Shown one piece after another: positions 22,397 to 42,558 of a DNA stretch of 45,915 nucleotides. Below the pieces are notes generated by a model, which searched no databases, was not told the origin of the DNA, and worked only from the letters and a program-made list of their open reading frames with translations. A program made the translations under genes and the position numbers. The stretch spans positions 1-45,915 of IMG/VR virus record IMGVR_UViG_3300012668_000094; one strand, 5' to 3'. Positions within the stretch are counted from its first letter, which is position 1; each line of letters begins with the position of its first letter. The stretch is from a virus.

Positions 22397-24195
22397 CAGG
22401 CGGGGATCCTTCTCGAGACGTTCGCCTGGAGGTTGGCGTTACCGCCCGGAGTGAGGCCGGCCAGCACCATCGAGATATCAGGTGCGGCGCCGGCGCCCAT
22501 GAAGGCGTTGTCTCCAGGCTGTTCGGTGGGAGCGGGGCCTCCCCCGCCCAGCTGTTGCATCAGCTGGGCCATGGGGTCGTTGGCCGCGGCTGCCGGCTGC
22601 TCCTCGGGCATGAAGGCCTCGAGGACCGCCTCGTGGAACGGCTTGCCGCTCTCCCGGTCCCTGATGATCTGCGCGGCCCGCTGGAGGGTCTGGAGGGGGT
22701 CGACCCCCTGCTGACTCATCACCGGGGCGTTGGCGAGCAGGGCGAACATGCCCTGCTTCATCGCGTCGGTCATCTGCTCGATATCGACTCGACGCTGGAG
22801 GTCTTCCACGTCGACGTCGAACGGCAACATCCGCTGCATGGTGTCGCGGTCGATGGCCTGATCTGCTCGCAGCTGGAGCAGGAACACGATGGCCCGGTTG
22901 GGGTCCATGCCGGCCGTCATGCCGTACGTCACGGAGACGGAGTAGTCGCCCTTGATGTCCTTCGCCGGCGTGTAGGTCTCGGTGAAGGGCGCGCCGCTGG
23001 CGACGCCGCGGACGGTCTTGCGGACCTCGGGCCAGTAGAGCTCGTCCATCTCGAACGCGATCTCGACGGCTCTACGGAGACAGTCCCCCACCACGTCCTG
23101 CGCGGTGGCGATCTGAGTGGAGTACCACTCGGTCAGGGCCTCCACGCCCTTGCCCGTGATGACCGAGGCCTTCACGTCCCCGCGGCGTGCCGCGGGTGAC
23201 CGGGTACCGTCCGCAATCTCCTTGTCCAGGAGCTGCGACTCGATCAGAGAAGACTGGGGCAGCTCGATGGGTACGCGCCGAACCTTGTCGGGACTGTTCG
23301 TGCGAATAATCGCATCGGCGCCAAAACTGATCTGAGTCACATCGTCAGGCACGGCGAGCGGAGCTCGCACTGCCTTGTCCGCGGCCTCCAACCCGTACAC
23401 GGCCATGCGTGCGCGGGCGAGCCAGACCCAGATCACATCATCGAACTGCCCTCGCTGCTGCTCATCCCACCGCGGTCGCTCAGCGACCACAATTGGGGGA
23501 CGCTTGAAGCGATGTTCAAGCCTACGGAGCACCAGCCCCTCCCGCTCGGGGAGGAAGAGGATGATTGAGTTGTTCACGTACATCTGGGCGACGTCGAGCT
23601 TGGTGTCGCCCGCCTCGCCCTTGCCCCAGGCTGTGTCGCTGCGCCCGATGTACTCGGCCACCTCGGGGAATTTCGCACTCAGCGACTCGATGGTGTCCTG
23701 CCACACCTTGCAGTACAGGGTGACGTTGCCATAGAAGTCGGTCTGCCAGAAGGCGGTACGGGGGTCGTCGATGCGGAACCGCGGGCACTGCGCCTCGAAG
23801 TCCGGCTCGATGACGATGGGCATGGCCGCGAAGGACCAGAACCAGTCGCAGCCCGTGTAGAGCTGGAGCTTGAGCCGGCTGTGCTCCACGTAGTAGAGCG
23901 CCACCTTGGTCCGCTTCGAGGAGAAGCGCTTGGCCCGGTCGCTGTTCATCGAGGAGCTGGTGCAGTCGATGGAGGGAAGGCGGGCCAGGGTCTCGGCCAT
24001 GTCTCGAGCCGTCACGTCGACGATGTTGGCGACGACCGGCCGGGGCCAATTCTTCGGGAACATCCCGGGCATGATGGATTCCACGTCACCACGACGCGCA
24101 GCCGCGACATCGCGGTTGCGCTGCTGGCGCTCAGTGGATCCTGAGACCAGCGAGTTGAAGCGACCCATCAGATCGCGCGAGACGTGTTCCATCAC
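22396..24195 (-). CDS. portal protein
   Basis: 599 aa directly downstream of terL with a GTGA overlap. Size and position are typical. No motif-level proof. Confidence 0.7.
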   Translation of the reverse strand: MMEHVSRDLMGRFNSLVSGSTERQQRNRDVAAARRGDVESIMPGMFPKNWPRPVVANIVDVTARDMAETLARLPSIDCTSSSMNSDRAKRFSSKRTKVALYYVEHSRLKLQLYTGCDWFWSFAAMPIVIEPDFEAQCPRFRIDDPRTAFWQTDFYGNVTLYCKVWQDTIESLSAKFPEVAEYIGRSDTAWGKGEAGDTKLDVAQMYVNNSIILFLPEREGLVLRRLEHRFKRPPIVVAERPRWDEQQRGQFDDVIWVWLARARMAVYGLEAADKAVRAPLAVPDDVTQISFGADAIIRTNSPDKVRRVPIELPQSSLIESQLLDKEIADGTRSPAARRGDVKASVITGKGVEALTEWYSTQIATAQDVVGDCLRRAVEIAFEMDELYWPEVRKTVRGVASGAPFTETYTPAKDIKGDYSVSVTYGMTAGMDPNRAIVFLLQLRADQAIDRDTMQRMLPFDVDVEDLQRRVDIEQMTDAMKQGMFALLANAPVMSQQGVDPLQTLQRAAQIIRDRESGKPFHEAVLEAFMPEEQPAAAANDPMAQLMQQLGGGGPAPTEQPGDNAFMGAGAAPDISMVLAGLTPGGNANLQANVSRRIPA

Positions 24196-26096
24196 ATGGC
24201 CTGTCGTTGATGCTGGAGGTACTCGTCGATGTTGATGACCACCCGGTCGGCAAGGTCGTTATCGGAGGCGAATGGGTTCTCGAGGAAGTCCTGCTTCCGG
24301 TTACCCAGGTGCTTGACGACCGCGCGAGCGGCGGTCTCTGCGAACCAGAGGGCCATCACGGTGTCGATCTTCTGGGTCTTCGGGTGCTCGGGGTACCACG
24401 TCACCAGCTGTGCCTTGAGGGTGCGGAAGGCCTCGTTGGGATTCATGCCAGGGAGGTCGAGCAGGGCGTGGCCGTCCTGATGTCCGCGGAGCAGATTCTC
24501 GAGCGAGGAGACACCCCACTCGGGGTCATTCTTGTTGTTGTTGGTGCTGTGCTCGTCGAGACGGACACCTCTCGAGGCCAAGAATTGGTTGATCTCCCGG
24601 TCCTGGGTGAGGAATGCCTGGAAGGCGTTCTTCTCAATTCGCCAGATGTCGATGTCGTACTTCTCGGTCCAGTCCATGATGAGCTCACGAAGCCCACTGG
24701 CACGGACCTGCTTGTTGAAGACGTCAACGAGGTAACGCTTCCCGGTGTCACGGTCGACAGCGAGTACCACGCAGGCGGTGAAGCCTGCTGACGTGGCCGG
24801 GTCTAGGCCGGCGACGACGGTCATGTTGCGGAGGGTGGGAACCTGTCCGCGCCAACGGCTGCCGTCCTGGCAGCTGTTGAGAGCTTCGATGGTAAAGAGG
24901 GTCTCCTCGGAGACCGGCTGCTGCATGTAGACCAGGGCCCAGGTGGTCGGCTTGAGCTTGCGGCGCAGCTTCGCCAGCCGCGGCCCGTCCCACTTCGGCC
25001 ACAGGCCCTCGGCGTTCGGGGTGCCCGGGCGGGTCGGGTGGGGTCGATCCGCGTACGGCCAGAGCGTGACCCACTTCTCCGGGTCGTCGTCGAAGTCGAA
25101 GACGGCCGGCTGGGACAGGTACGTCCAGTCGGACTCTTCCCCGTCGTAGTGGTCGGGGTTGAGGAGCTCGGAGTAGAGGTCCACCGGTGCCACGCGAGTC
25201 CCCACGACGAGCAGGGGCGCGTCACGGGTCATCACGTCCTGCATGATGTAGTCCAGGTGCGCCTCGTACTGGTGCGCGTTGTTCAGGTCCTGCACGTCGT
25301 CGAGGATGATGAGATCGGCGCGGGCGCCGTAGATCTGCTGACCGATTCCCAGGACCTCGATGTTCGGGTCCTTCTGGTCGGAGTCGGTGTTGCCGAAGTA
25401 GATCATGTTGGCAGTCCAGACCTCGGCTGCCTTCTCGAAGCCCTCGGCCGGCCCGTAGTCGATCTGGAGCTTGGCGAACGCCTTGTTGGTCAGCCGGCGC
25501 TTGATGCCGGCGAGGAACTTCTTCGCCATCCGCTCGGTCTTGGAAATGATGACCACGCGGAACTCGGGGTTGGTGACGATCTTGTACGTCACGTAGTCCA
25601 TCGTGATCGTGGTGCTCTTCGCGTGGCCGGGTGGAGTGTTGATGATCACCGTGTCCGGGTCGCCCAGCTTGTAGACCTGGGCCGGGTGCAGGTTGCGAGG
25701 CTCCCGACCCTCGATGAGGTCGATCCACTGCATCTGGTGATTGAAGCGCCTGGAGTTGAGGTACTTCTCCGAGAAGTCCTCAAAAGAAATGAATTCGCCG
25801 CGGCGGTCGTATTTAGCACCAGCAATGCGGGCGAGAATGAGATCTGCGGCCTCTTTGAATTCCGCATCGGTTTCCCGGTAATACTTCCAAATGGCCGGCT
25901 GCTTTCCAGCCAGTCGACAGGAATCCTCGACAGTATGGCCGGCCTCCCGCATGGCAAGGATCTTGGCCTTGGTCCGTGCCACCTCTGAACGCTTGGCTGT
26001 CGCCTTGCGTCGAACCTGAGAAGAAGCAAGTCCTGAATTCTGGGCCTCACCGGCGAGCCGGCCATCGCGGCTCGGCGGGTCAAGATGACGGGCCAC
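24192..26096 (-). CDS. terL: terminase large subunit with N-terminal HTH-like extension
   Basis: PPGHAKST (Walker A-like), LIILDDVQD (Walker B), nuclease-type VVAGLDPATS. The first ~95 aa are basic/helical (AKILAMREAGHTVEDSCRLAG). Confidence 0.9.
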   Translation of the reverse strand: MARHLDPPSRDGRLAGEAQNSGLASSQVRRKATAKRSEVARTKAKILAMREAGHTVEDSCRLAGKQPAIWKYYRETDAEFKEAADLILARIAGAKYDRRGEFISFEDFSEKYLNSRRFNHQMQWIDLIEGREPRNLHPAQVYKLGDPDTVIINTPPGHAKSTTITMDYVTYKIVTNPEFRVVIISKTERMAKKFLAGIKRRLTNKAFAKLQIDYGPAEGFEKAAEVWTANMIYFGNTDSDQKDPNIEVLGIGQQIYGARADLIILDDVQDLNNAHQYEAHLDYIMQDVMTRDAPLLVVGTRVAPVDLYSELLNPDHYDGEESDWTYLSQPAVFDFDDDPEKWVTLWPYADRPHPTRPGTPNAEGLWPKWDGPRLAKLRRKLKPTTWALVYMQQPVSEETLFTIEALNSCQDGSRWRGQVPTLRNMTVVAGLDPATSAGFTACVVLAVDRDTGKRYLVDVFNKQVRASGLRELIMDWTEKYDIDIWRIEKNAFQAFLTQDREINQFLASRGVRLDEHSTNNNKNDPEWGVSSLENLLRGHQDGHALLDLPGMNPNEAFRTLKAQLVTWYPEHPKTQKIDTVMALWFAETAARAVVKHLGNRKQDFLENPFASDNDLADRVVINIDEYLQHQRQAM

Positions 26097-26109
26097 AATT
26101 ACTCTTTCA

Positions 26110-26144
26110 TCGAAATGTGCAAAGTCAATTCGTCGAAATGTGCA
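26110..26144. repeat. direct repeat TCGAAATGTGCA x2 just upstream of terL
   Basis: Exact 12-mers at 26110-21 and 26133-44. Related GGCACATTCGGA (minus strand) at 9389-9400 upstream of the scaffold gene. Confidence 0.6.
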
Positions 26145-26154
26145 GGATTAGTTT

Positions 26155-26261
26155 GGGGGAACCAGGGCAGCGACGGAGGAGCTGCCTGGAGGGGGGATCA
26201 AGCCAGGGGGAACCTACGACTCTCTAGGAGGAGGTTCCTCCCCAGCTCAGGCTGGGGAACC
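26155..26261. repeat. GGGGAACC x3 direct (~50-bp spacing) plus one inverted copy
   Basis: Direct copies at 26155-63, 26206-14 and 26254-61. Inverted GGTTCCTCCCC at 26233-43. Confidence 0.6.
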
Positions 26262-26725
26262 TGGGAGGGAGGTGGAGCTCTGTCGTCGAGCTCCACCGAC
26301 CGACTGGAGGGGGTCTAGGAGCCTGGGGCTTCTGGGCCCCAGCTCCTGGCAAGAGCGAAGGCGACCGGTCTTTCGGTCGCTCAGGCTGGAGCCTTCGCTC
26401 CCTCTGTAAGGGGGTTCACTATGTATTAGCCCCGAGAAGGGTCCCTTTCCCCGTCCAACGGCCAAAGTATTTTTTGAGCCTCTGGAAACATGCAGGTCAG
26501 AGCGATATGCCCGGATCCTGTTCCTACCAAAATTTTCAGAGGGACCTTAGCGTTCGAGCGCAGCGAGGACGCTAACAACGGGGGGTCAAGATGCCTGCCT
26601 CGCCCTCGACGGCACCCCCCGGGGGGGGTGTGACAGCCTGCCTCACCCTCTCGCCCAGCACGGGAGGAGTACGTCCCAACGATGGCAAGACAATGCACGT
26701 TGTAATGCAATAGGTAATGCAATAG

Positions 26726-26763
26726 ACAAAACGAAAGGCCCGAATACATTACATATTCGGGCC
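26726..26763 (-). terminator. intrinsic terminator of the 28478->27003 cassette
   Basis: Perfect 10-bp stem GGCCCGAATA/TATTCGGGCC (26737-63), followed on the minus strand by TTTCGTTTTGT. Confidence 0.8.
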
Positions 26764-27002
26764 AATCGTTGTGGACTTGCTATTCGGTTATTGCTTTCTC
26801 AGGTCTCCCTCCCTCTCTCTCTCTCTCCCTCAAGCCATGATCCTGTAGTGGACACTGTGATGTGTCCTCCCCAATCAGGCCTCTCCCAATCAACCATCTC
26901 CCTTCACCGACTCAAGGATGCGCCGCGTGGCATTGTCCGCCATTGTTTGCGACCCCAGAAGAATGATGATGTCACTCATTCCAATGGGAATGCGTAGGGT
27001 GA

Positions 27003-27998
27003 TCATTGGATCGAGTCGAATTGGATTGTTCCATCCATGGGATAGGGGAGTTCGTTATACAGGATGTCCCGGGCCTCACTGACCGCATGGTCGGAATTAT
27101 CCGACTCCGGCACATCCACGTCCACGTCCACGGTGAAGCGAACCGTGACAGTCGTTGTGTGCGCTTCATCCCATTCCTCGCGCCCCATGAGACCAATCTC
27201 ATCCATGCAGTTCTCGAATTCCCCGCACAGTCCATTCTGCTTGGCGTAGCGGACGGCCGTCGCGTTAGCCTCCTCCTTCCACGCTTCGACGCGAGCACGG
27301 TCACGCGCTAGCGCGGTCTCTACGGCTCTGTCAATGTCCGCTTGAGTGAAGGATGCCGCCACGGTCTCCACGGCGCTCTCAGGTGCCTCTGTGGACTCCT
27401 GAGAGGTCTCGTCGGCCCACCGCACGAACGTGGTGGACGACAGGTCCAGAGCGCCGCGCACCCAGTCGCGCTCGCGCCCGGCGTCGTCGTGCGACCTCAC
27501 CACGACATAGCGCGGCCCGGACACTGCCGTGTGACTAACCACAGTGGCGTCACCTGCGCTGATGTGATTCCACACCGACCCAAGGGGATAGGCCTCTGTG
27601 ATGGGGAGTGCCTCGCGCGCCGTAGCGTCGTGCTCAATGCGTGGCCGGACCGGAGTAGCGACGGGCGAGACCGGAGTCATGTAGTGCTGTTCGATATTCC
27701 AGCCACGGAAAGTGGCGGACGTATCCAGCGTGTCAGTGAGGTCGTATCCCGCAGGATCCAGTAGCCACATGCCACCCGAGCGCGGATCGGTCTCAGGGAG
27801 GACAACGAGTCCCCAACCCGGACCCATGTCGCGGGAGGGGACCGCGTAGAACGTCCTCTCGTCGTTGGTCGCGTGAGGGTTGGTCCTCATACCGGAGGAT
27901 TCCAGACCGGACGCGAAGAACTCCGGCGAGAGGGTGACGAGAGTGAGTGTTCCATTCTCGAGGGTGAGTGTTTCGGTTGTGCTAGTAGACATGATCAC
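27003..27998 (-). CDS. acidic protein of unknown function (331 aa), cassette gene 2
   Basis: Clean ORF with weaker GC3 bias than the rest of the genome. C-terminal ...TVRFTVDVDVDVPESDNSDH... No motif recognised. Confidence 0.6.
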   Translation of the reverse strand: MIMSTSTTETLTLENGTLTLVTLSPEFFASGLESSGMRTNPHATNDERTFYAVPSRDMGPGWGLVVLPETDPRSGGMWLLDPAGYDLTDTLDTSATFRGWNIEQHYMTPVSPVATPVRPRIEHDATAREALPITEAYPLGSVWNHISAGDATVVSHTAVSGPRYVVVRSHDDAGRERDWVRGALDLSSTTFVRWADETSQESTEAPESAVETVAASFTQADIDRAVETALARDRARVEAWKEEANATAVRYAKQNGLCGEFENCMDEIGLMGREEWDEAHTTTVTVRFTVDVDVDVPESDNSDHAVSEARDILYNELPYPMDGTIQFDSIQ

Positions 27999-28036
27999 TA
28001 TTCCATTCTGTGAAGTGTTTTGCGGATTGTGTTTTG

Positions 28037-28049
28037 TGTCAGTGTTGCG
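28037..28049 (+). promoter_or_regulatory. degenerate motif copy TGTCAGTGTTGCG (antisense to cassette gene 1)
   Basis: 2 mismatches to the consensus. Lies in the 100-nt spacer between the cassette genes. Confidence 0.25.
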
Positions 28050-28097
28050 TGGCGGTCATACAGATAATGACGATGATTACCACAGTGAGAATGTCTG

Positions 28098-28478
28098 TCA
28101 GATATCCTCCAGTATGGTCGGCAGGTCGTCCCATGCGACATCTGAGAGGTCCCCGGGGATGTCCACAACAGCGCCGTAGCACTGGTCCAGTGCCACCATG
28201 TGACCGAGCGCGGCCGCAATCTGGAGGATGTGGAACACGTTGTGAACGAACGTCTCCCCCGCCTCCAGTGAGACTGCACCGCGCGCGACCAGTAGGCCTA
28301 CCTCCGCCATAGCAGGCTCCAGTAGCGCGGCAAGCGCTCCCATCATCTCATCGTCGTCGACGATGGCAGGGAAAGCGACGGCAAGAGTTTCGCACGGTGA
28401 GATGCCGAGGAATTCCCCGAGATCGGCCGACGTGGTGAGTGCTTGCGACCATTCCATGATCGTGTCATGTGTGCTCAT
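28098..28478 (-). CDS. very acidic small protein (126 aa), cassette gene 1
   Basis: ATG 28478 with GGAAGGA RBS. Asp/Glu-rich with almost no Lys/Arg. Confidence 0.6.
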   Translation of the reverse strand: MSTHDTIMEWSQALTTSADLGEFLGISPCETLAVAFPAIVDDDEMMGALAALLEPAMAEVGLLVARGAVSLEAGETFVHNVFHILQIAAALGHMVALDQCYGAVVDIPGDLSDVAWDDLPTILEDI

Positions 28479-28540
28479 TGTTTCGATCCTTCCCAATCCG
28501 GTCCGGCACGGTGCCGGCCCGATACAGACTCAACGCCCTA

Positions 28541-28553
28541 TGCAAGCCTGACA
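28541..28553 (-). promoter_or_regulatory. promoter-like motif TGTCAGGCTTGCA driving the acidic cassette
   Basis: Minus-strand copy ~60 nt upstream of ATG 28478. Confidence 0.55.
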
Positions 28554-28685
28554 CAACCCCATGGCACATCTTCGTTACCAAACCGTGACCCATGTCTAGA
28601 CCAGCCTCGAGATCGGCGTCGAGCGGCGCGCCGCGGGGCGACGGCCCTCGCGCGCGCGCGGGGGGTGGGGGAGGAGGCGCAACGG

Positions 28686-28715
28686 GTCCGCACTGGACCG
28701 CACTGGTCCGCACTG
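28686..28715. repeat. three tandem 10-bp repeats G(T/A)CCGCACTG
   Basis: GTCCGCACTG GACCGCACTG GTCCGCACTG, helically phased, in the divergent control region. Confidence 0.8.
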
Positions 28716-28784
28716 CACATGGTGGAGCCCATGGTCAACCACCGTTACCAAGTCGTGACCTTTGACCGGGAATGGTCTACCATG

Positions 28785-28797
28785 TGTCATGGTTGCA
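28785..28797 (+). promoter_or_regulatory. promoter-like motif TGTCATGGTTGCA driving the early plus-strand operon
   Basis: About 110 nt upstream of ATG 28906. Confidence 0.55.
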
Positions 28798-28905
28798 GCC
28801 TGTATCCCCGGTGGATCTGGCGACAGAGCCACCACCCCCAAGTACCGGGTTCACCGGGGACATCAACCACTACATTTCGGCCGATTTCGGCCAGAGAGAG
28901 GCACC

Positions 28906-29175
28906 ATGACCAACTTCAACCGAACCGTTACGAGCATCGCGCTCGCCTGTCCGCACTGCGGCAGCGACCGCCTCCGTTCCGACGAGGTGGCCACTATCGG
29001 CTATCCCGTCGCCATGTTCCGCGACGAGAGCGGCAACGTCGACGTCGAATACACCGGCGAGGAATACGACACCTTCGATGAGGGCACCGTCTATTCCGGC
29101 GACATCTGGTGCCGCGACTGCGGCGACCAGCTCACCGAGTCCGACCTTGTTTCGGCACAGGAGGTGGACGCATGA
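28906..29175 (+). CDS. zinc-ribbon protein (89 aa)
   Basis: ATG with GAGAGAGG RBS. CPHC...CRDC. Confidence 0.6.
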   Translation: MTNFNRTVTSIALACPHCGSDRLRSDEVATIGYPVAMFRDESGNVDVEYTGEEYDTFDEGTVYSGDIWCRDCGDQLTESDLVSAQEVDA

Positions 29176-29312
29176 AGCGAATCGGGCGGGCCGAGTATCT
29201 GCGGATACTCGACGAGCAGCGATGGGGGGGAAACAAGGACTATGTGACTTGGGTCCGCTTCCCGAGCGGTCACATCCGCTTCTACCTCATGGACGACGAG
29301 GTGGACGCATGA
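29172..29312 (+). CDS. hypothetical early protein (46 aa)
   Basis: ATGA overlap with the upstream stop. MKRIGRAEYLRILDEQRWGG... Confidence 0.5.
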   Translation: MKRIGRAEYLRILDEQRWGGNKDYVTWVRFPSGHIRFYLMDDEVDA

Positions 29313-29584
29313 CCATGTTCTGGACCATGCCCGAGGACGACTGCCTACCGGCAGTCACGCTCTGTGAGCGCCACGCCCTGGAGGCGTCCAACCTGGGAGC
29401 TCCGCTATTCGGCTTCACGGAGCCGTTCAAGACCATGCAGGAGGCCGCGACCATGCTGGACGCAATGGTCGCCACCTTCGGCAACGGAAAGGTGACCTCG
29501 TTCAACTTCCAGACGAGCGAGATCGGCCACTGCGACGAATGCCACCGCGAGATGCAGGCATTCCACCAGGGGGAGGCCGTATGA
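29309..29584 (+). CDS. hypothetical early protein (91 aa)
   Basis: ATGA overlap. C-terminal HCDECH motif. Confidence 0.55.
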   Translation: MTMFWTMPEDDCLPAVTLCERHALEASNLGAPLFGFTEPFKTMQEAATMLDAMVATFGNGKVTSFNFQTSEIGHCDECHREMQAFHQGEAV

Positions 29585-29766
29585 GCCGCAAGGACTACGT
29601 GGCGATTGCTATGGCAATCAACGAGGCGTACAAGATGAGCGACTACCACCCAGAGGCACGCCATGACATGGAGCGGGTCGCAGGGAACATCGCTCGCGTA
29701 TTCGCTGCCAACAATCCCAACTTCGACCGCGACCGCTTCATGGCTGCCTGCGGGGTGGACCAGTGA
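29581..29766 (+). CDS. hypothetical early protein (61 aa)
   Basis: ATGA overlap. Confidence 0.55.
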   Translation: MSRKDYVAIAMAINEAYKMSDYHPEARHDMERVAGNIARVFAANNPNFDRDRFMAACGVDQ

Positions 29767-29975
29767 ACGTCAAGGCCTGCGCGAACTGCTACGACTACGC
29801 CGGGGAGCACGCCCTGTTGGTTCCTGATGGCCGAGCCCAGGGTGGCTGGCGACACAAGGGCGGCACCGTCCGTTGTGCTGGTCAGGAGGACGACCACACC
29901 GACGACCGCGCTGAGCCCATGACCCTCAGCACCGAGGACGCCATCGACTTCGGAATCATCGAGGAGACCGCATGA
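29763..29975 (+). CDS. hypothetical early protein (70 aa, Cys-containing)
   Basis: GTGA overlap. Confidence 0.5.
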   Translation: MNVKACANCYDYAGEHALLVPDGRAQGGWRHKGGTVRCAGQEDDHTDDRAEPMTLSTEDAIDFGIIEETA

Positions 29976-30106
29976 AAGAGCCCTGCGGAGCCACCATGGA
30001 ATCCCTCATGCTCGACAACCACACCCACGCCTGCACTGGCACTCACGACGAGGGCCATCACATGTGTTCGGAATGCCGACGCTATTTCGGAAAGGCCGAC
30101 AATTGA
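29972..30106 (+). CDS. 44-aa Cys/His-rich small protein
   Basis: ATGA overlap. Hand translation: MKEPCGATMESLMLDNHTHACTGTHDEGHHMCSECRRYFGKADN. Not in the track. Confidence 0.45.
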   Translation: MKEPCGATMESLMLDNHTHACTGTHDEGHHMCSECRRYFGKADN

Positions 30107-30108
30107 AC

Positions 30109-30324
30109 GTGCGAATAGAACCAAAGAAGATAAACCGGCTCGCAAGCACCGTAGAAACGGTTACATTCCGAGCCGCTGAATTCTTCGCCCTTTATGTAGA
30201 AAGGGAGGACGAGGAGTTCGGGGGGACATTCTGGGACTGGGTCTCCGACCACGCCACCCTGGACGCGGCATACTCCCGAGCTACCTCGCTCGGGGACGCC
30301 ACCCCGGCAGTAAGGGCAGCCTGA
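30109..30324 (+). CDS. hypothetical early protein (71 aa)
   Basis: GTG 30109 chosen just after the upstream stop. The start is uncertain. Confidence 0.4.
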   Translation: MRIEPKKINRLASTVETVTFRAAEFFALYVEREDEEFGGTFWDWVSDHATLDAAYSRATSLGDATPAVRAA

Positions 30325-30551
30325 TGGACGACCCTGGGGAAACGCCTGGAGACGGGTCCGCACTCAACCCATGGGACCAACTGCCACCCCACCTCCAGGA
30401 GGCGCTCAGAGGGGCCATGGAAGGCCTCTCAGACGCCTTCGGGGACGTCTCACACCCACTCGGTCCACAGCTCCAGCGCATGTGGGAGGTGGCCGACCAG
30501 ATCGAGGCGTATGCACTGAGCAAAGAACAGATTTCGGCCGAAAGGGGATAA
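30324..30551 (+). CDS. hypothetical acidic protein (75 aa)
   Basis: TGATG overlap. Confidence 0.5.
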   Translation: MDDPGETPGDGSALNPWDQLPPHLQEALRGAMEGLSDAFGDVSHPLGPQLQRMWEVADQIEAYALSKEQISAERG

Positions 30552-30565
30552 ACTCAATTCCCTTT

Positions 30566-30591
30566 TAGTTTGCAACAATGCAACCATTACA
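30566..30591. promoter_or_regulatory. internal promoter-like element (TAGTTTGCA on plus; TGTAATGGTTGCA on minus)
   Basis: Imperfect inverted pair GTTTGCA-ACAA-TGCAACC in the 60-nt gap before ATG 30612. Confidence 0.35.
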
Positions 30592-30611
30592 TACAACAGA
30601 AAGGAATACCT

Positions 30612-30917
30612 ATGACAGCACCCATTTCCGACAAGGCGGCTATCCGCCAAGTCATCCGGGCGCTTCGCGCATCGGATCACAAGATCTACGGAGGGCACGA
30701 CGGAGAGGAGGAAGTGACCTACTTCAATGCCAGTGAGGACGACATCATCGGTGATATGACGGCGTGCGACTCCTCGAAACTCTATGTGACCCTGCCTGAT
30801 GGCACGGAAGGCTGGATCCTCTTCGTCCTCGGCAACGAGCCATTCGAGGTCATCTGCGACCACACCACCAACCTGAGCGACGTCCTGGACCCACTGGCCG
30901 AAGCGTGGGAGGAGTGA
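30612..30917 (+). CDS. hypothetical acidic protein (101 aa)
   Basis: ATG with GAAAGGAA RBS. Confidence 0.55.
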   Translation: MTAPISDKAAIRQVIRALRASDHKIYGGHDGEEEVTYFNASEDDIIGDMTACDSSKLYVTLPDGTEGWILFVLGNEPFEVICDHTTNLSDVLDPLAEAWEE

Positions 30918-31108
30918 GTCGAGGCAAAAGCCGCCAGCGCTGGCACTGCCGCGCTTGCGAAAAGACGGCCTTCGGGTCCGAGCACCGAGCGATAGACACG
31001 ATGGTCACACTCCGTGACCAGTCCACTCGTGACGTAGTACCAATCCGCGCCTACCCTTGTCCCTATGGCAATGGGTGGCACCTGACCAAGCAAAAGGAAC
31101 GTGTATGA
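30914..31108 (+). CDS. zinc-ribbon protein (64 aa)
   Basis: GTGA overlap. WHCRAC...YPCPYGNGWHLT. Confidence 0.5.
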   Translation: MSRGKSRQRWHCRACEKTAFGSEHRAIDTMVTLRDQSTRDVVPIRAYPCPYGNGWHLTKQKERV

Positions 31109-31524
31109 CCCAGTTGTATCTCAATCCATACCGCCCCGAGATGGGCGATGCGAGGCCGCTCCGCAAGCTGGCTCGCAACTACCGTGCGACCTACCACCAG
31201 TACCAGAGTCCGCGGGAGCTCCAGACTGCCACGGCCACCGGCCGATGGGTCGGGGTCGAGTCCCGGCTTCCGGGGTCGAAGTCGGCTCACGAGGTCGACT
31301 GGGTTGGACTGATGGATGAGTTCTACGCCCGCACAGACGGCCTGCACATCGTCGTCGGCAGCATGAACCACGGTCTGCCGGGTGACGTGCTCGAGATGAT
31401 GGACTACCTCGTGTACGTCCCTCAATTCGACGACGTGCCCTTCCTGGCGCCGGCCACAGCCGCGGCCATCGTCCTCGATCAGATCTTTGCGACGGTCGCC
31501 AACCGGTCAGGGGTGTTTGGATGA
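31105..31524 (+). CDS. SPOUT (SpoU/TrmH-like) methyltransferase-fold protein, divergent
   Basis: 139 aa. LHIVVGSMNHGLPGDVLEMMDYLVYVP...APATAAAIVLDQI resembles SpoU motifs 2-3. ATGA overlap. Confidence 0.45.
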   Translation: MTQLYLNPYRPEMGDARPLRKLARNYRATYHQYQSPRELQTATATGRWVGVESRLPGSKSAHEVDWVGLMDEFYARTDGLHIVVGSMNHGLPGDVLEMMDYLVYVPQFDDVPFLAPATAAAIVLDQIFATVANRSGVFG

Positions 31525-31880
31525 GCGAGCCGTACTTGATGCCCTGCGGCCACACCGTGCAGATCCCCCATGGCGGCTCAGCCAAGTGCGAGCCGTGCGC
31601 AGCCCTAGCCGGGTATCTGAATGAGCAAGTCGCACGCTCCGACGCCGCCCTGCGTACTGCACCCCCGCCCCCACCGCGAACGGAGATGACCGTGGCTGAG
31701 CAGTTCCCCTACGCCACACGGTGCTGCCCCGGCGACGGGTCGATGGCTCACGTCCGCGGGTGCGTCAACCACCCAGAAGCCGCACGCATGACCGCCGAGC
31801 AGACCTCAGCCGGCAAGCAGCCCCCGCCGAGGCCCAAGCGGCCGATGGAGGACAGCCCCTACCGAGGAGAGTCGCGATGA
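31521..31880 (+). CDS. Cys-rich protein with Pro-rich linker (119 aa)
   Basis: ATGA overlap. Confidence 0.5.
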   Translation: MSEPYLMPCGHTVQIPHGGSAKCEPCAALAGYLNEQVARSDAALRTAPPPPPRTEMTVAEQFPYATRCCPGDGSMAHVRGCVNHPEAARMTAEQTSAGKQPPPRPKRPMEDSPYRGESR

Positions 31881-32227
31881 ACGAAGAAGAAGTATTCATC
31901 GCAGGCTGGCTGGCCGGAGCCGAGTGGTTCGAGGGCTCATGGCTAGAGGCCACCAGCACTGCAAACGCTAAGACGTCGTACGCGGAGTGGCGAGCACGCC
32001 GCGAGGTCGAGGAACTGGCAGCACAGCGAGACGACTCGCTGCGGAGGTTGTCTGACGGCCACCTCACGAACGCCGAACTGCGGGCGCGGCTCGGGGCGGT
32101 GGAGGCGCTGGCGGAGGAGCCTGTCGTCTGGCCGTATGTGTGGCAACTCCACGAGTGGTGGAAGTGGCACGACCGCCTCCGTGCCGCTCTCGCCAACCCC
32201 AGCGCCGCGCAGGGGGAGGCCCCGTGA
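31877..32227 (+). CDS. hypothetical Trp-rich helical protein (116 aa)
   Basis: ATGA overlap. The longer track ORF is trimmed. Confidence 0.5.
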   Translation: MNEEEVFIAGWLAGAEWFEGSWLEATSTANAKTSYAEWRARREVEELAAQRDDSLRRLSDGHLTNAELRARLGAVEALAEEPVVWPYVWQLHEWWKWHDRLRAALANPSAAQGEAP

Positions 32228-32538
32228 ATCCGACCAAGAAGGAGATCACCGCCGTGGTCGAGCTTCTCGAGCAGGACTGGGAGACACCCGAGGAGCTGGC
32301 CAAGGCTGTCATTGCAGCCGTGGATGACGCTCGCGTTGAGCGCACCACGTACGTCGCGGTGCTCCAATTCGGGAAGGCCAAGCCGGTCTGGTATGCGGGG
32401 CTCGGGCCCTACGCCGGTGCAACGTCGGCACGTAACGCCGCCAAGAGATTCCCCGGCTCCTCTGTTGCTACGGTGATTGCCGTGGTTCCATTGAGGTCAC
32501 CGGAGATGGTTGAGCAACAACTCAGGGAGACGGCATGA
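32224..32538 (+). CDS. hypothetical protein (104 aa)
   Basis: GTGA overlap. Confidence 0.5.
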   Translation: MNPTKKEITAVVELLEQDWETPEELAKAVIAAVDDARVERTTYVAVLQFGKAKPVWYAGLGPYAGATSARNAAKRFPGSSVATVIAVVPLRSPEMVEQQLRETA

Positions 32539-32669
32539 ATATTGTCATAGGCATCGGCGTGCTCTTGGGCTTCTTCCTGATGGTCACGGATCCATACCTC
32601 ATCACCTGGGGCCTCATCATCTTCGCGTGTGTCGCCGGTACGGCCGAGTGGTCGAAGAGGTTCAGGTGA
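32535..32669 (+). CDS. 44-aa membrane protein (2 TM)
   Basis: ATGA overlap. MNIVIGIGVLLGFFLMVTDPYLITWGLIIFACVAG... Not in the track. Confidence 0.5.
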   Translation: MNIVIGIGVLLGFFLMVTDPYLITWGLIIFACVAGTAEWSKRFR

Positions 32670-32905
32670 CGAAGGTTCAGCACACCGCACGCCTCCACGA
32701 GGAGAGCGTGCAGAAGATCGCTCAAGGTCGACCTGCCTTCGATTTTCGTGGCCGACCCCTGCAACAACGCCACGCAACCAGCAAGTGGTCCGTGACCGTG
32801 TTTCCGCTCGTGATGGAAACAGCACGCCGGCTCCAGCGACCCGGCACAACCATCCGCATCATCAACGAGGGCGAAGTCCTCATCATCAACAAGGAGAATA
32901 GATAG
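32666..32905 (+). CDS. hypothetical protein (79 aa)
   Basis: GTGA overlap. Confidence 0.45.
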   Translation: MTKVQHTARLHEESVQKIAQGRPAFDFRGRPLQQRHATSKWSVTVFPLVMETARRLQRPGTTIRIINEGEVLIINKENR

Positions 32906-33207
32906 TGGCTCAGAAGATCAGCGTCGTCCTGGTGGACGACCTCGATGGCAGTGAGGCTCACGAGACCGTGAGCTTCGGTCTCGATGGGGCAACCTACGAG
33001 ATCGACCTCAACAAGGCCAACGCCCAGGACCTCCGGATCGGACTGGCGCCCTTCCAGGCTGTCGCCCGAGTGACATCCAAGGCACCGAAGTCCGGCCCAT
33101 CCAAGACGCGCCTCGTGCGCGAGTGGGCCCGAGAGATCGGCCTGGACGTATCGAGCCGTGGAACCATCCCGGCCGAGATCGTGCAGCAGTATGAGGCTGC
33201 TCACTAG
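32905..33207 (+). CDS. lsr2: Lsr2-family nucleoid-associated protein (xenogeneic-silencer type)
   Basis: N-terminal KISVVLVDDLDGSEAHETVSFGLDGATYEIDL. C-terminal REWAREIGLDVSSRGTIPAEIVQQYEAA matches the Lsr2 dimerisation and RGR-type DNA-binding regions. Confidence 0.85.
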   Translation: MAQKISVVLVDDLDGSEAHETVSFGLDGATYEIDLNKANAQDLRIGLAPFQAVARVTSKAPKSGPSKTRLVREWAREIGLDVSSRGTIPAEIVQQYEAAH

Positions 33208-33277: not shown

Positions 33278-33457
33278 TTACTGCCGCAATGAACGCAACA
33301 GCTTCATGCGTACGGCGATCAGGGCGACGATGGCTTGGTCCAGGTCGTCCGTGACGTCGTGCTCATCCGAGCTGCGGAGCTCGGGGTGCTGACGGATCTG
33401 GGACTCGAGCGAGCGGATGAACGCGCCGAGCTCGGTGATGAACTCATGACTCAGCAT
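33278..33457 (-). CDS. hypothetical helical acidic protein (59 aa)
   Basis: ATG 33457 shares a base with the upstream stop (TGATG). Alternative ATG at 33469. Confidence 0.45.
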   Translation of the reverse strand: MLSHEFITELGAFIRSLESQIRQHPELRSSDEHDVTDDLDQAIVALIAVRMKLLRSLRQ

Positions 33458-34065
33458 CACTTCCCCCATCGCAGGGGGATGTCGACACCCGGGTGGTCAC
33501 TGTCGATGTCGACCGTGGACGGTGAGAGCAGCCGAATCCTTGGCGGCGCGAGTACACCAAGCACCCCGTTGCCGCGGTAGTGCCGCTGCATGTTCTGTTC
33601 CATCCAGTCCACCGAGAGGTTCCAGTCGCCGGCCATCACGCCGCGACAGCTCTTGGCCCGGGCGACATAGGCAGCCCTGGCTGCCGTGGACCTGAGTGGT
33701 GGCGCATGGACCGCCCAGATCGGGACAGGCAGGCCCTTCGCATCCGCACCCACGATGGGGCGCATCCGGACGGCGGTCTTGCCGCTCCCGGAGGGGTTGG
33801 ATCCCACCAGGATCCCTACCGGCTCGAGCTCGAACCTGGAGGCGATAGCCACGCCGGCCTCCGGGGAGCCCTGCTCTCCATACTGGACTGAGTGGAAGCC
33901 GAAGTCCCGAGCCAGTGGTTCCAGGTTGAGCCAGCTGGCCTCCGAGAAGACCACGATGTCAGGGAGGCCACGCTTCCCCGGCAGAGTCAGGGCCAGTCGA
34001 GCCTCCTTCGCGGGGTTGCGCTCAGAGACGCCCTCGAGGTTCGCTACCCGCAATAGGGCCTTCAC
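33457..34065 (-). CDS. endonuclease/exonuclease/phosphatase (EEP)-fold protein
   Basis: 202 aa. ...DIVVFSEAS..., ...IWAVHAPP..., ...GDWNL..., ...DSDHPGV... in EEP motif order. GTGA overlap. Confidence 0.55.
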   Translation of the reverse strand: MKALLRVANLEGVSERNPAKEARLALTLPGKRGLPDIVVFSEASWLNLEPLARDFGFHSVQYGEQGSPEAGVAIASRFELEPVGILVGSNPSGSGKTAVRMRPIVGADAKGLPVPIWAVHAPPLRSTAARAAYVARAKSCRGVMAGDWNLSVDWMEQNMQRHYRGNGVLGVLAPPRIRLLSPSTVDIDSDHPGVDIPLRWGK

Positions 34066-34691
34066 TCGGTACCTCCTGGATTGGGCCCACCGAGGGCAGC
34101 CCTCAGTCGGCCGAGGATGCGCCGCAGACGGGAGTCCGCGGCCTTGGTGGTGCAGCCCCAGTCGAGCGCCAGGACGGCGATCTCCTGGTCGGGGTCCTTG
34201 ACCCCGTACACCTGTGTCAGAAGCGCTCTATCGTGCTCGTGGAGCGTCTGGAAGGCCCTCCTGACGTCGGCCACCATCGCCATCAGGTTGCCGCCCTCGT
34301 TGGAGGGCGTGCCCGAGCTGATCCGGTCCAGCTGGACGGATCCCGGGAGCATCCAGTCTGGGTCGAAGGACAGCACGAGCAGGTCTCGCACCATGGGGAT
34401 CGAGTAGAAGAACTCGTCCTCGGGGAGGTAGCCGTCGTGCTCTGACTTCTCGGCTCGGCAGTACCGCTCGCCGGCGTTCCGCAAGGCCTTGGTGATGGTC
34501 CGCTCGGCGTGGCGGTCGCCGTGCTCCTCACGCCACTTCATGGCCTTGTGGTAGTTGGCGAACAGCCACAGGTAGCACTCCTGCTGCACGTCCTCATAGG
34601 AGACGTGCTGGCGGTACCGGGCGGTCAGGATGCGGGAGGCGGAAGAGACAGCGGCGTGATCGGCCGGGGTGAAGTCGAACGTGGTGGTCAT
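34062..34691 (-). CDS. sigma-70-family (ECF-like, regions 2+4) factor
   Basis: 209 aa. EDVQQECYLWLF...ALRNAGERYCR (region 2-like) and DRALLTQVYG...TTKAADSRLRRILGRLR (region 4 HTH-like). Confidence 0.5.
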   Translation of the reverse strand: MTTTFDFTPADHAAVSSASRILTARYRQHVSYEDVQQECYLWLFANYHKAMKWREEHGDRHAERTITKALRNAGERYCRAEKSEHDGYLPEDEFFYSIPMVRDLLVLSFDPDWMLPGSVQLDRISSGTPSNEGGNLMAMVADVRRAFQTLHEHDRALLTQVYGVKDPDQEIAVLALDWGCTTKAADSRLRRILGRLRAALGGPNPGGTE

Positions 34692-34894
34692 GAGTGCAGC
34701 ACCTCGTCGATGGCCCGGACGGTCTCGTCCAGCGCGTAGGGAAACTCGGCGGGGTGGTCATCTCGCAGGAGGGTGGTCCTGCCGATCTTGTGCTGGTGGA
34801 CTCGGACGGAGATCTCCAGGCGGCGGTGATGCCCAAGCGTGTCCTCGTGGGTGATGCCTCCGCTGACGCGCTCCCAGCGCGGGTCGCGCATCAT
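34688..34894 (-). CDS. hypothetical protein (68 aa)
   Basis: ATGA overlaps at both ends. Confidence 0.45.
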   Translation of the reverse strand: MMRDPRWERVSGGITHEDTLGHHRRLEISVRVHQHKIGRTTLLRDDHPAEFPYALDETVRAIDEVLHS

Positions 34895-35670
34895 GCGATC
34901 CCCGCCGTTCGGTCGGAGCGGTTCCCGCGGAACCACTTCTTGTCGGTCGGGCAGAAGTAACGGGGGTAGCGCCGGGTCTTGGTGTAGGCGAAGCCGCGGC
35001 GTTGGCCCTGCTCACGACACGTCGGGCAGTGGCCCTCGAGGATCGGCTCATCGTCGTAGAGGGCAAGGGCCGGCATCGAGGTGAGATCGGAGCAGGCGTG
35101 CAGTAGCTCCTCGGTGGTCACCACGTCGCGCTTGTTGTAGCGGCGCATCTGGCGCCACATCTTCGGGTCGCCCTCGAGACAGCCGCGCCACAGCGCGAAG
35201 CCGTCGTTGGTCATCTTCCCGGTCAGCCTGTACCGCTCGGTGACGTAGGCCAGCTTGTGGCTGAGCCACTCCTCGTCGGCCTTGATGACCTTGTAGAGAT
35301 CGACCGAGGCGAACGGGCTGGGCAGGCCCAGGCCGGCCAGCCGGAACTCCCTATTCAGGTGGCGAAGGTCGAACTTGTCCGAGTTGTAGCCCACCACCAC
35401 GTCAGCGTTGTTGAGGAGCTCCCACGCCTTCTCGACCATGTGGTGGTGGCGCTCCTCCCAGGCCACCCGAGGAGCGAACTCCTCGGCCTGAGTGAAGTCG
35501 AACTCCGACTCGAACATGACCCGGTTCTCGTGCTCCCACTTCGCAGCGAAGCTCAGCATCCGGGTGGGCTCAACGATCTGGATGGGGGCGATGTTGGTGT
35601 TCCAGACCTGGAACGAGTAGCAGAGGTGGGGCGAGGTTTCTATATCTAAAGTCAGAACTTTACGCGACAT
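34891..35670 (-). CDS. DEDD/RNase H-fold 3'-5' exonuclease (PolB-exo-like) with C-terminal zinc ribbon
   Basis: 259 aa. N-terminal KVLTLDIETSP, ...GYNSDKFD..., C-terminal CPTC...FCPTD. Confidence 0.65.
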   Translation of the reverse strand: MSRKVLTLDIETSPHLCYSFQVWNTNIAPIQIVEPTRMLSFAAKWEHENRVMFESEFDFTQAEEFAPRVAWEERHHHMVEKAWELLNNADVVVGYNSDKFDLRHLNREFRLAGLGLPSPFASVDLYKVIKADEEWLSHKLAYVTERYRLTGKMTNDGFALWRGCLEGDPKMWRQMRRYNKRDVVTTEELLHACSDLTSMPALALYDDEPILEGHCPTCREQGQRRGFAYTKTRRYPRYFCPTDKKWFRGNRSDRTAGIA

Positions 35671-35767
35671 TGCGATACGTCTTCCCGCTAGTGATCTGAT
35701 AGATCACGTGGCCATTGCCCTTGTAACCATGGTCACGACAGTCGATGGTGAGGACCTTGCGGCTCAC
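35660..35767 (-). CDS. 35-aa ORF echoing the exonuclease N-terminus
   Basis: GTGA overlap with the upstream stop. VSRKVLTIDCRD... versus MSRKVLTLDIET... Confidence 0.25.
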   Translation of the reverse strand: MSRKVLTIDCRDHGYKGNGHVIYQITSGKTYRNVA

Positions 35768-36081
35768 GGCTTCTCCTCGAGGTCATCGGGGAAGAGGTTG
35801 GTGAGATCGGTGTCGATCTCGGTGGCTTCCTTCGCTACCTCGTATTCGAGGTGGCACTTCTCAAGCAGTGGCTTCGCGTACTCGAGTAGGTTGAGCACCT
35901 CTTTACGGTTGGCATCTGGCCACATGAGGCGCAGATGAACACCGGCCGAGGGGAACGAGAACATGAGGCGCAGCTCATCGCTGCTCTCAGGGTTGTCTGG
36001 AAGGATGAGCTTGAACCGGGCCATCCGGCCCTCTGGGTCGTTCGGGTCAATCGGGTCGTTCGGGTTATTGGGATCCGTCAT
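35764..36081 (-). CDS. hypothetical acidic protein (105 aa)
   Basis: ATG 36081, 4 nt after the primase stop. The longer track ORF overlaps the primase out of frame. Confidence 0.5.
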   Translation of the reverse strand: MTDPNNPNDPIDPNDPEGRMARFKLILPDNPESSDELRLMFSFPSAGVHLRLMWPDANRKEVLNLLEYAKPLLEKCHLEYEVAKEATEIDTDLTNLFPDDLEEKP

Positions 36082-36085
36082 GGAC

Positions 36086-36724: not shown

Positions 36725-36935
36725 GGAACTCCAACCCCTCTTGTGTCATCAGGAGCTCGATGGCGTCCCCTCGTACTTGGCATGTGAAGCAATTGAAGAC
36801 GCCCTCCTCGAGGTTCACGGAGGCCGAGGCTCGGCGGTCCTGGTGGAACGGGCACCGGACCTGCTGGTTGCCCTGGCGAGCGGCGTTGTACTCGACCCCG
36901 TACTTGTCGAGGATCGGCCCGATCTCGAGGGTCAC
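36570..36935 (-). CDS. DNA primase, CHC2 zinc-finger part
   Basis: CPFHQDRRASASV...FNCFTCQVRGDAIELLM. The last ~40 codons are Arg/Gly-rich and overlap the TOPRIM ORF by 155 nt. Confidence 0.75.
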   Translation of the reverse strand: MTLEIGPILDKYGVEYNAARQGNQQVRCPFHQDRRASASVNLEEGVFNCFTCQVRGDAIELLMTQEGLEFREAKRVAEELSGGSGKGLSRSSGREDGLLPRRSGHRPGRRNWVSPWSRGRP

Positions 36936-37547: not shown

Positions 37548-37561
37548 CAGGTATGTGGGGA

Positions 37562-40391: not shown

Positions 40392-40423
40392 GGAGCGGCT
40401 ACGCACCGCCCTCGAGAGGCGCT

Positions 40424-40726: not shown

Positions 40727-40729
40727 GGC

Positions 40730-42466: not shown

Positions 42467-42558
42467 TTTCGATTACCCCCAAAGCTTCCCCGGGTTGTCA
42501 GAGGAAGGTTGATCCGTACCTCCGTCTGGGTCTAGGACGGGGGTTGTGGTGCCGATGA

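Follow-up and report, generated by a model that had tools for sequence, protein, structure and literature searches.

The anti-restriction proteins T7 Ocr and ArdA and the RecBCD inhibitors lambda Gam and T7 gp5.9 are small, soluble, and very negatively charged, and one product of the phage locus described here (protein B) is likewise so. Conserved Cys and His residues are, to our knowledge, not a defining feature of any of these DNA mimics. The nearest cultured relatives of the phage carrying this locus are the Beephvirinae Streptomyces phages FlowerPower and Stella, whose TerL proteins share 42 to 43% identity with its TerL and are coded a few hundred nucleotides from the left genome end, ~370 nt beyond terminal repeats of 253 and 263 bp, respectively. 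The leftward-transcribed early genes of these phages begin near the right end, and ~2 kb of non-coding DNA is located around the terminal repeat. In the Rhodococcus linear plasmids pRHL3 and pROB01, the terminal-most, outward-reading operons (RHA1_RS42855-RS42840, ending 652 bp from the replicon end, and ROP_RS38700-RS38715, ending 623 bp from it, respectively) code for proteins annotated as hypothetical, so that no function can be transferred from them.

The window analyzed here is a 45,915-nucleotide stretch of viral DNA (IMG/VR record IMGVR_UViG_3300012668_000094), and the locus of interest comprises three genes designated B, A, and C. FlowerPower and Stella differ in having no homologue of any of the three, and their anti-restriction candidate is an ArdA-like gene within the early operon. 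Unlike the window phage, they also have ~20 tRNA genes and no annotated integrase; the window phage is temperate, with a tyrosine integrase at positions 44405 to 45433. Stella gp89 and gp90 were considered as positional analogues and set aside, as they are basic and of low complexity, have no HMM match, and are probably spurious open reading frames (ORFs). The first gene of each plasmid operon codes for the C-terminal domain of the gene A family (hmmsearch E value of about 1e-13; phmmer E = 8e-5 to the window A protein), and all of the plasmid operon products are acidic and Lys-poor, like those of the window operon. The plasmid proteins lack the N-terminal domain and the middle barrel of A, however, and the partner genes code for a DUF3846 protein and two small proteins rather than B and C; comparison of B with DUF3846 by hhalign indicates that they are unrelated (probability 0.1). 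That the A family recurs in operons that read outward and come last before the end of a linear replicon provides a concrete and testable lead on its function.

Organization, conservation, and regulation of the operon

The three genes form an operon, B-A-C, on the minus strand between the early and late modules. The initial annotation described a two-gene cassette, and although it is indeed a self-contained unit at the early/late boundary, it contains three genes, gene C having been overlooked. At least six related metagenomic phage contigs show the order B-A-C, terminator, long non-coding stretch, and TerL, and wherever a related contig spans the region (L001, L005, L006, L007, L008, and L009), B-A(-C) occupies the same place. 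In this uncultivated lineage of temperate actinobacterial phages, B-A-C is a conserved operon transcribed separately from its neighbors, with a transcription start and an expression timing that we infer. It is a fixed feature of this phage group and not a recent acquisition, because its position is fixed in the relatives, its third-position GC content (GC3) is early-like, and it shares a motif with the divergent early operon.

The lower GC3 noted at the outset is evident relative to the late genes (0.844) and the replication genes (0.837), but the cassette GC3 of 0.715 is about equal to that of the adjacent early operon (0.741), and the GC content of the cassette region (0.60) is within the ordinary range for the window genome. 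The reported AT-richer spacer of about 100 nt between B and A is present at positions 27999 to 28097 (minus strand); it is 99 nt long, CA-rich, with a GC content of 0.42, and unstructured (fold z = +0.26), and the corresponding spacer in L001 is 240 nt. Nucleotide identity to L001 is 70 to 73% for A and B (70% for A) and 86% for TerL, and this faster divergence of A and B than of TerL is as expected for host-interaction genes.

Upstream of B is a putative promoter motif, TGTCAGGCTTGCA (28541 to 28553, minus strand), belonging to the family TGTNANGNTTGCA, which has eight exact matches (seven unique sites) in the genome compared with 0.05 expected, and an extended consensus of gTTGTGTGTcAgGgTTGCAt. 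The motif is where it was first reported and strongly over-represented, and it may act as a promoter; it could instead be an operator. Several copies are antisense within operons, and the motif is also found at the replication operons. A consensus promoter scan gave no match at the motif, and a sigma-70 -35/-10 reading was discarded because the spacing is inconsistent by eye. A divergent partner motif, TGTCATGGTTGCA (28785 to 28797, plus strand), faces small early genes, and the divergent pair, 28553(-) and 28785(+), is also kept in L001 and L002. As this pair is common to the cassette and the early operon, the two units are probably co-regulated early in the lytic cycle, and expression confined to lysogens is less likely.

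A repeat is located ~20 nt upstream of the motif, GGTCAC-N5-GGTAAC (GGTCACGGTTTGGTAACG on the minus strand; 28573 to 28590), with a second copy (28743 to 28760) upstream of the divergent motif. These two copies (0.24 expected) lie within a longer repeat, D2, spanning 28558 to 28590 and 28728 to 28760, and L001 carries equivalent elements; the repeat is possibly a regulator binding site. The 5' leader hairpin reported before B exists in the MFE fold at 28496 to 28523 (minus strand), with the core GGCCGGCAC-CGU-GCCGGACC followed by a Shine-Dalgarno-like GGGAAGGA, but it is a weak candidate that folds no better than shuffled sequences (z = -0.56); L001 has a hairpin of other sequence at the same position (z = -1.6).

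The operon is closed by an intrinsic terminator (26727 to 26763, minus strand), a GC-rich hairpin with an 11- to 12-bp stem and a U-run that is conserved in the relatives. Positions 26737 to 26763 together with the T-run have a folding energy of -26.4 kcal/mol (z = -7.35), and the stem is kept via compensatory changes in L001, L004, and L005. To call it the best terminator in the genome overstates the case, in that it is strong and conserved but only among the top three or four, with that at 33218(-) being stronger. The presence of a conserved strong terminator between the operon and TerL argues that the operon is not late expressed.

Proteins coded by the operon

Gene B (28098 to 28478, minus strand) codes for a helical, hyperacidic protein of 126 aa that, as first described, is nearly devoid of Lys and Arg. 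It has no Lys and one Arg (K+R 0.8%), a net charge of -20 (-0.16 per residue), and a pI of at most 4.05, making it the most acidic and most K/R-poor protein of the genome. A charge density of -0.16 per residue would match that of known DNA mimics. The 13 homologues, all from metagenomes, share 44 to 60% identity, and all 14 family members, B included, are small proteins with a high negative charge density, with net charges of -18 to -28 and between zero and three Lys plus Arg residues in 13 of the 14 members.

That B is a DNA-mimic anti-restriction protein, as the initial annotation ventured, is a guess, in favor of which are the strong acidity and the scarcity of Lys and Arg throughout the B family. 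The AF2 model (pLDDT 84) is a helical bundle whose best PDB match by Foldseek has an E value of 1.9, no known DNA mimic is among the PDB matches listed, and B has no sequence match to the ArdA or Ocr families in Pfam or NCBIfam. Residues F36, P37, H79, H83, and H93 are invariant and C29 is nearly so, and the near-invariant C29 together with the three invariant His residues suggests a site that binds metal or another specific ligand, instead of mimicry by charge alone. Should B be a nucleic acid mimic or decoy, it would represent a new fold for this role and a new tool against actinobacterial defense or repair enzymes. No B-like domain is fused to an A-family protein among 164 proteins.

Gene A (27003 to 27998, minus strand) codes for a modular acidic protein of 331 aa starting from a GTG at 27998; an alternative ATG start at 27992, chosen by gene callers in two assemblies, gives a protein of 329 aa. 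The ORF and its acidic character are as initially described (pI 4.39, net charge -32, and containing VDVDVDVPESDNSDH), but this acidity is unremarkable, ranking 7th of ~51 proteins. A is a member of a sizable uncharacterized family of actinobacterial mobile elements without a Pfam, PHROG, or PDB relative, with at least 270 clusters at 50% identity (cluster representatives, E ≤ 1e-3); homologues include P0002-P0005, and a profile search with an 83-sequence alignment added at least one protein.

The AF2 model of A (pLDDT 84) has an N-terminal domain (residues ~10 to 110, pLDDT 96 to 98), a small beta-barrel (125 to 185, pLDDT ~80), a disordered acidic linker (188 to 209), and a C-terminal domain (215 to 331), and as a whole it has no significant fold match in the PDB by Foldseek. 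The best local Foldseek matches of the middle barrel are to 5dma (PcrA/UvrD C-terminus; probability 0.96, E = 0.18) and 7egs (UvrD C-terminal domain), and it also resembles CarD, with fold matches at E values of 0.06 to 0.4 that are not significant. In the predicted model, residues 125 to 185 may thus bear a weak fold likeness to Tudor/SH3-like protein-interaction barrels such as the PcrA/UvrD C-terminal domain and the RNAP-interacting domain of CarD. A homologues bear one to several such barrels, and one family member has a DUF1918 match.

The C-terminal tails of 6 of 10 A-family members align with PF14207 (DpnD/PcfM-like) at E values of 1e-4 to 0.03, across a beta-hairpin-plus-helix within profile positions 1 to 33 of 46 (five of the six start at position 1). 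The scores of 15 to 23 bits are all below the 25-bit gathering cutoff and the tail of the window A protein gives no match, and at the sequence level the alignments are suggestive of a remote similarity. DpnD is a protein from the pneumococcal DpnI cassette (PMC4471560). A supposed link between DpnD/PcfM and polyvalent proteins was dropped, as DpnD/PcfM is unmentioned in PMC5512222.

Gene C (26890 to 27006, minus strand) codes for a 38-aa protein, MITLRIPIGMSDIIILLGSQTMADNATRRILESVKGDG, and its start overlaps the stop codon of A (ATGA). Gene callers report it in both of two independent assemblies, and it has homologous ORFs in L001, L005, L007, and L009, and shows codon-type conservation relative to L001; a Pfam scan gave no match.

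The initial observation that neither A nor B has a recognizable domain holds for Pfam, PHROGs, NCBIfam, and PADLOC. The defense role raised with it finds no support, as PADLOC gave no match to B and only AbiEii for A (E = 0.028), with no stretch passing singly. Searched by tblastn, 50,697 phage records contain no match to A, to B, or to any of three distantly related members of the A family; there is also no megablast match of the region to cultured phages, and nothing below E = 0.19 in PDB profile searches by sequence. A BFVD fold search gave matches to an unnamed protein (E = 3.9e-5) and to a 'host shutoff protein' (E = 2.3e-3, TM 0.14), which are weak and globally poor and were not used to assign function. 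With these set aside, neither A nor B resembles, in sequence or in fold, any known protein for anti-restriction, DNA mimicry, or host shutoff.

Possible roles of the operon

As a fixed lineage feature rather than a recent acquisition, B-A-C is a reasonable candidate for a host-takeover or anti-defense function. The reading we favor, with a probability of about 40%, is that of an early, host-directed accessory operon in which B is a decoy or nucleic acid mimic and A is a modular adaptor. The physical genome ends, which like those of the closest cultured phages are probably direct terminal repeats of short length, would be located within the non-coding stretch, such that no coding DNA would follow the operon at the right end, toward which it would read; if the last-packaged DNA is ejected first, as is usual in phages, the operon would be one of the earliest parts of the genome to reach the cytoplasm. 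Expression would be early, alongside the neighboring small early genes, and the products would target host proteins and not the virion. B, a negatively charged helical protein essentially free of Lys and Arg, would be a decoy or mimic by which a DNA- or RNA-binding protein of the host is blocked, with a restriction enzyme, an AdnAB/RecBCD-type end-processing nuclease, or a nucleoid protein as candidate targets, and it would resemble T7 Ocr, ArdA, Gam, and gp5.9 also in being coded on early-entering DNA. A may be an adaptor that tethers or targets host factors, built of a novel N-terminal domain, Tudor/SH3-like barrel, acidic linker, and conserved C-terminal domain, and C would be a translationally coupled mini-protein.

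Adjacency to TerL and to the structured RNA suits a packaging or late-regulation role equally well. It is conceivable, if unlikely, that the operon serves the ends of linear replicons, in their protection, in replication or processing of the terminal repeats, or in assisting terminase at the packaging site. The operon always adjoins the long conserved non-coding stretch and TerL, the A-family C-terminal domain is found in the terminal-most outward operons of pRHL3 and pROB01, and C is small, conserved, partly basic, and, judged by eye, of HTH/RHH-like appearance. However, the conserved strong terminator and 0.6 to 1.3 kb are located between the operon and TerL, codon usage is early-like and not late-like, the acidity of A and B makes direct DNA binding unlikely, and L012, a phage of more distant kinship, has its A-family gene at a place other than beside TerL. 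There is also no scaffold or terminal-protein signal other than a weak PHROG scaffold match in 1 of 83 members, and none for TerS, as neither A nor B has such a match in Pfam or PHROGs and C has none in Pfam; a terminator plus ~630 nt upstream of TerL and an early-like GC3 also do not fit a TerS gene. We regard it as quite improbable that B-A-C and the ~600-nt structured RNA constitute an unrecognized end-of-replicon module of actinobacterial linear mobile DNA, in which B has a new mimic fold and the loss of Lys is adaptive. Such a module would span terminal-repeat phages and Rhodococcus linear plasmids, and the A-family C-terminal domain would be the hallmark of telomere-proximal proteins of a new class. 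Its proteins would shield replicon ends or disarm end-attacking host enzymes during cell entry, and having almost no lysine, as is seen throughout the family, would allow escape from lysine-directed host tagging, such as actinobacterial pupylation.

It is very unlikely that the operon controls late transcription, with its promoter feeding the late genes through regulated terminator read-through into the leader and TerL, and with A, B, or C as regulators in a lambda pR'/tR'-like arrangement. The motif is absent between the terminator and TerL and from the late strand of the 25-kb late operon, and conservation extends to both the terminator and the structured leader of ~600 nt, but late promoters of another type may be present in the leader. 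Likewise, the A barrel weakly resembles RNAP-binding Tudor domains (UvrD/PcrA C-terminus, CarD), although these fold matches are not significant (E ≥ 0.06) and there is no similarity to known antiterminators. Still less probable is the original proposal of a recently acquired moron, expressed in lysogens for host defense or superinfection exclusion. The phage is temperate, and the unit is bounded by a promoter-like motif and a terminator of its own, but its position is conserved in all relatives found rather than being patchy, its composition equals that of the early genes rather than being deviant, and its motif is common to the lytic early and replication operons; it also lacks a PADLOC match and, unlike typical exclusion proteins, its products have no membrane or lipoprotein features. 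A self-contained promoter-terminator unit of lower GC3 is insufficient for calling a moron, and in the present lineage such a unit belongs to the early program as a constant component.

The non-coding region beside TerL

Outside the operon, between the terminator and the start of TerL, is a conserved non-coding region (26097 to 26700, minus strand), and these ~600 nt look like a conserved structured RNA. The region has no Rfam match, and a 19-mer scan for the element found two low-GC contigs with chance-like matches in the metagenome collection and none in the genome collection. The core of the region has 83% nucleotide identity to L001, and of 126 predicted pairs, 23 have double-sided changes, compared with 9.7 ± 2.2 in shuffles and 2 to 6 in slid controls.

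A conserved three-gene operon encoding novel protein families

Genes B, A, and C form a conserved, autonomous operon on the minus strand between the early and late modules, coding for novel protein families and sharing a control motif with the early genes. The initial annotation described a cassette of two acidic proteins, a real and mostly accurate observation that overlooked the third gene, C. What is new is the uncharacterized protein families; the genomic setting itself is of a known kind.

Gene B (28098 to 28478, minus strand) codes for a 126-aa protein with no Lys, one Arg, and a net charge of −20. First described as almost devoid of Lys and Arg, it tops the ∼51 genome proteins in both acidity and Lys/Arg poverty. 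All 14 family members have net charges of −18 to −28, and 13 contain zero to three Lys plus Arg. The AF2 model (pLDDT 84) is a helical bundle with a 30-residue helix at its end, and Foldseek found no similar solved structure (best E = 1.9). Invariance is complete for F36, P37, H79, H83, and H93 and almost complete for C29 and E75; E75, H79, and H83 are spaced i, i+4, and i+8 on the long helix. Among related metagenomic phage contigs, the B HMM matches strongly in L001, L002, L005, and L009 and weakly in L006; the distant proteins at the B position in L006 to L008 appear by eye to retain the Cys, the F/Y-P pair, and one His.

A 99-nt spacer (GC 0.42), AT-richer as first described, separates B from gene A (27003 to 27998, minus strand). 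The 331-aa A protein is indeed acidic (pI 4.39, net charge −32), although it ranks merely 7th of ∼51 in this respect. Its AF2 model (pLDDT 84 overall) has a confident N-domain (residues ∼10 to 110, pLDDT 96 to 98), a small beta-barrel (125 to 185), a disordered acidic linker (188 to 209), and a C-domain (215 to 331). When 1.84 billion cluster representatives were searched by profile, 270 relatives emerged at E ≤ 1e-3; among the 150 matches listed, 142 have the C-domain, 50 the N-domain, and 18 the particular barrel of A, and the numbers of N-domains and barrels differ among homologues. The C-domain core, FExWKxxAxxxAxxYAxxNxLCxEFDRCMxxIGL, leads into a beta-hairpin and then a helix. Six of 10 family tails match Pfam DpnD/PcfM at 15 to 23 bits, below the 25-bit cut-off, and the tail of A itself does not match; DpnD is a protein without known function (PMC4471560). 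The A fold has no significant match in the PDB, the best local ones being Tudor-like barrels, led by the PcrA/UvrD C terminus (probability 0.96, E = 0.18, not significant).

Gene C (26890 to 27006, minus strand; 38 aa) has a start overlapping the A stop codon (ATGA) and shows codon-type conservation relative to L001. Independent assemblies, Logan ERR4837109 and JGI 3300011199, yielded this same genome, and C is called as a gene in both. Homologues in L001, L005, L007, and L009 keep the motif RIPIGMSDxxILLG...ATRRIL; by eye, C appears HTH- or RHH-like, but it has no Pfam match. Lys makes up 0.6% of the proteins encoded at 26890 to 28478, versus 2.6 to 3.8% in other modules, and its scarcity is family-wide (medians of 0.9% in A and 0% in B; alignments A3 and A4). 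Speculatively, low Lys might let these proteins evade lysine-directed modification in actinobacteria.

Genome organization and control elements

The window, 45,915 nt long, is an actinobacterial phage genome (GC 0.64) in which nucleotides 1 to 77 are identical to 45839 to 45915, a k-mer overlap typical of circular-type assemblies, so that the unique length is 45,838 nt and the motif matches at 58 and 45896 are one site. It codes for a tyrosine integrase (44405 to 45433), a RecB-like nuclease, a DnaB-like helicase, and a Toprim primase. GC3 resolves four blocks: late genes (614 to 26096, minus strand; 0.84), B-A-C (minus; 0.715), small early genes (28762 to 33207, plus; 0.74), and replication genes (33278 to 43379, minus; 0.84). 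The early operon includes genes for an Lsr2-like nucleoid protein (32905 to 33207, plus; Pfam E = 3e-24) and a weakly SpoU-methylase-like protein (31057 to 31524, plus), and a very strong, bidirectional-looking terminator lies at ∼33218, between the early and replication operons.

The motif at 28541 to 28553 belongs to the family TGTNANGNTTGCA, with eight exact matches versus 0.05 expected; the motif-type promoter proposed here is strongly over-represented as a sequence and putative as a promoter. The consensus extends to ∼19 nt, with ∼11 copies of gTTGTGTGTcAgGgTTGCAt at 58, 7626, 9448, 28785, 41379, 43453, and 43477 (plus) and 28553, 30591, 42571, and 42859 (minus), and may be a promoter, operator, or stoperator-like site. 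Sense-oriented copies sit 5' of the cassette, early, replication, and integrase operons, and those at 58, 7626, 9448, 30591, and 41379 are antisense within operons. The copy at 9448 is followed ∼300 nt on by a strong plus-strand terminator near 9742 (−25.7 kcal/mol), making 9448 to 9750 a small plus-strand motif-terminator unit antisense inside the late block.

The divergent control region (28558 to 28760) contains two copies of GGTCAC-N5-GGTAAC (28573 to 28590 and 28743 to 28760), three 10-bp-phased ACTGGnCCGC repeats (28682 to 28718), and GC-rich palindromes (28614 to 28665); the divergent motif pair and the GGTCAC-N5-GGTAAC repeat are kept in L001 and L002. The hairpin reported 5' of B exists but folds no better than chance (z = −0.56). 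The intrinsic terminator (26737 to 26763, minus; −26.4 kcal/mol, z = −7.35) folds strongly and ranks within the strongest three or four genome-wide rather than as the best. B-A-C is probably expressed early.

Conservation, replicon ends, and possible functions

Homologues of A and B occur in metagenomes only, with none in 50,697 cultured phage records. All related contigs covering the region (L001 and L005 to L009) share one layout: small early genes in one direction, a divergent control region, B or a B-like gene, an A-family gene, usually C (clear in five of seven loci), a terminator (confirmed in L001, L004, and L005), 0.8 to 1.3 kb of non-coding DNA, TerL, and portal. A and B are 70 to 73% identical in nucleotides to L001, versus 86% for TerL, and are thus faster evolving. 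Recent acquisition as a moron had been proposed from a GC3 lower than that of the flanks; this holds against the late and replication genes, but the cassette equals the adjacent early genes, and with the shared motif and common layout, the proposal is wrong. The same synteny, composition, and motif sharing make a lysogen-expressed defence moron very improbable.

Beyond phages, the A-family C-domain is encoded in genomes of Rhodococcus and Cellulomonas, and 15 Rhodococcus plasmids carry it too. On linear plasmids pRHL3 (RHA1; L023 652 to 2379) and pROB01 (R. opacus B4; L025 555830 to 557569), the A-like gene is first in a four-gene operon, followed by a DUF3846 gene and two genes for small acidic proteins; this outward-reading operon is terminal-most, stopping 652 bp (pRHL3) and 623 bp (pROB01) from the replicon end. 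In the Rhodococcus linear plasmid pUSK13_2 (L024), the unit lies inside a large inverted duplication, which may stem from the assembly folding back at a telomere. Phages FlowerPower and Stella have terminal repeats of 253 and 263 bp with TerL ∼370 nt further in, from which we infer that the phage ends lie within 26100 to 26730; B-A-C would then be a terminal, outward-reading operon, as on the plasmids. Phage DNA packaged last is usually ejected first, and by this rule B-A-C would lie on the end entering the cell first.

A function tied to replicon ends or packaging is worth weighing but unlikely, and a role in regulating read-through to the late operon is more doubtful still. We tentatively prefer (probability of roughly 40%) a host-directed accessory function, in which B would act as a charge-based decoy or nucleic acid mimic and A as an adaptor built of modules. 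An anti-defence role is a plausible guess.

The non-coding region and TerL

A conserved non-coding stretch of ∼600 nt (26097 to 26700, minus strand) runs from the terminator to TerL, with counterparts in L001 (4547 to 5162), L004 (3899 to 4505, minus), and L005 (1463 to 2132). It is conserved about as well as TerL (83% nucleotide identity to L001 in the core), matches no Rfam family, and single-nucleotide indels rule out a coding role. The predicted fold has ∼20 helices and 23 pairs with double-sided changes, versus 9.7 ± 2.2 in shuffles (0 of 500 reaching 23) and 2 to 6 in slid controls; since there are four sequences and the structure derives from the same alignment, this candidate large structured leader or noncoding RNA of the late operon is a lead rather than a result. 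G-U pairs conserved on the TerL strand speak for RNA rather than DNA structure.

TerL (24192 to 26096, minus strand) is 42 to 43% identical to Streptomyces Beephvirinae TerL. No separate small-terminase gene is evident in the window; TerL is long (634 aa), with a basic extension over its N-terminal ∼100 aa that may be a source of DNA recognition.
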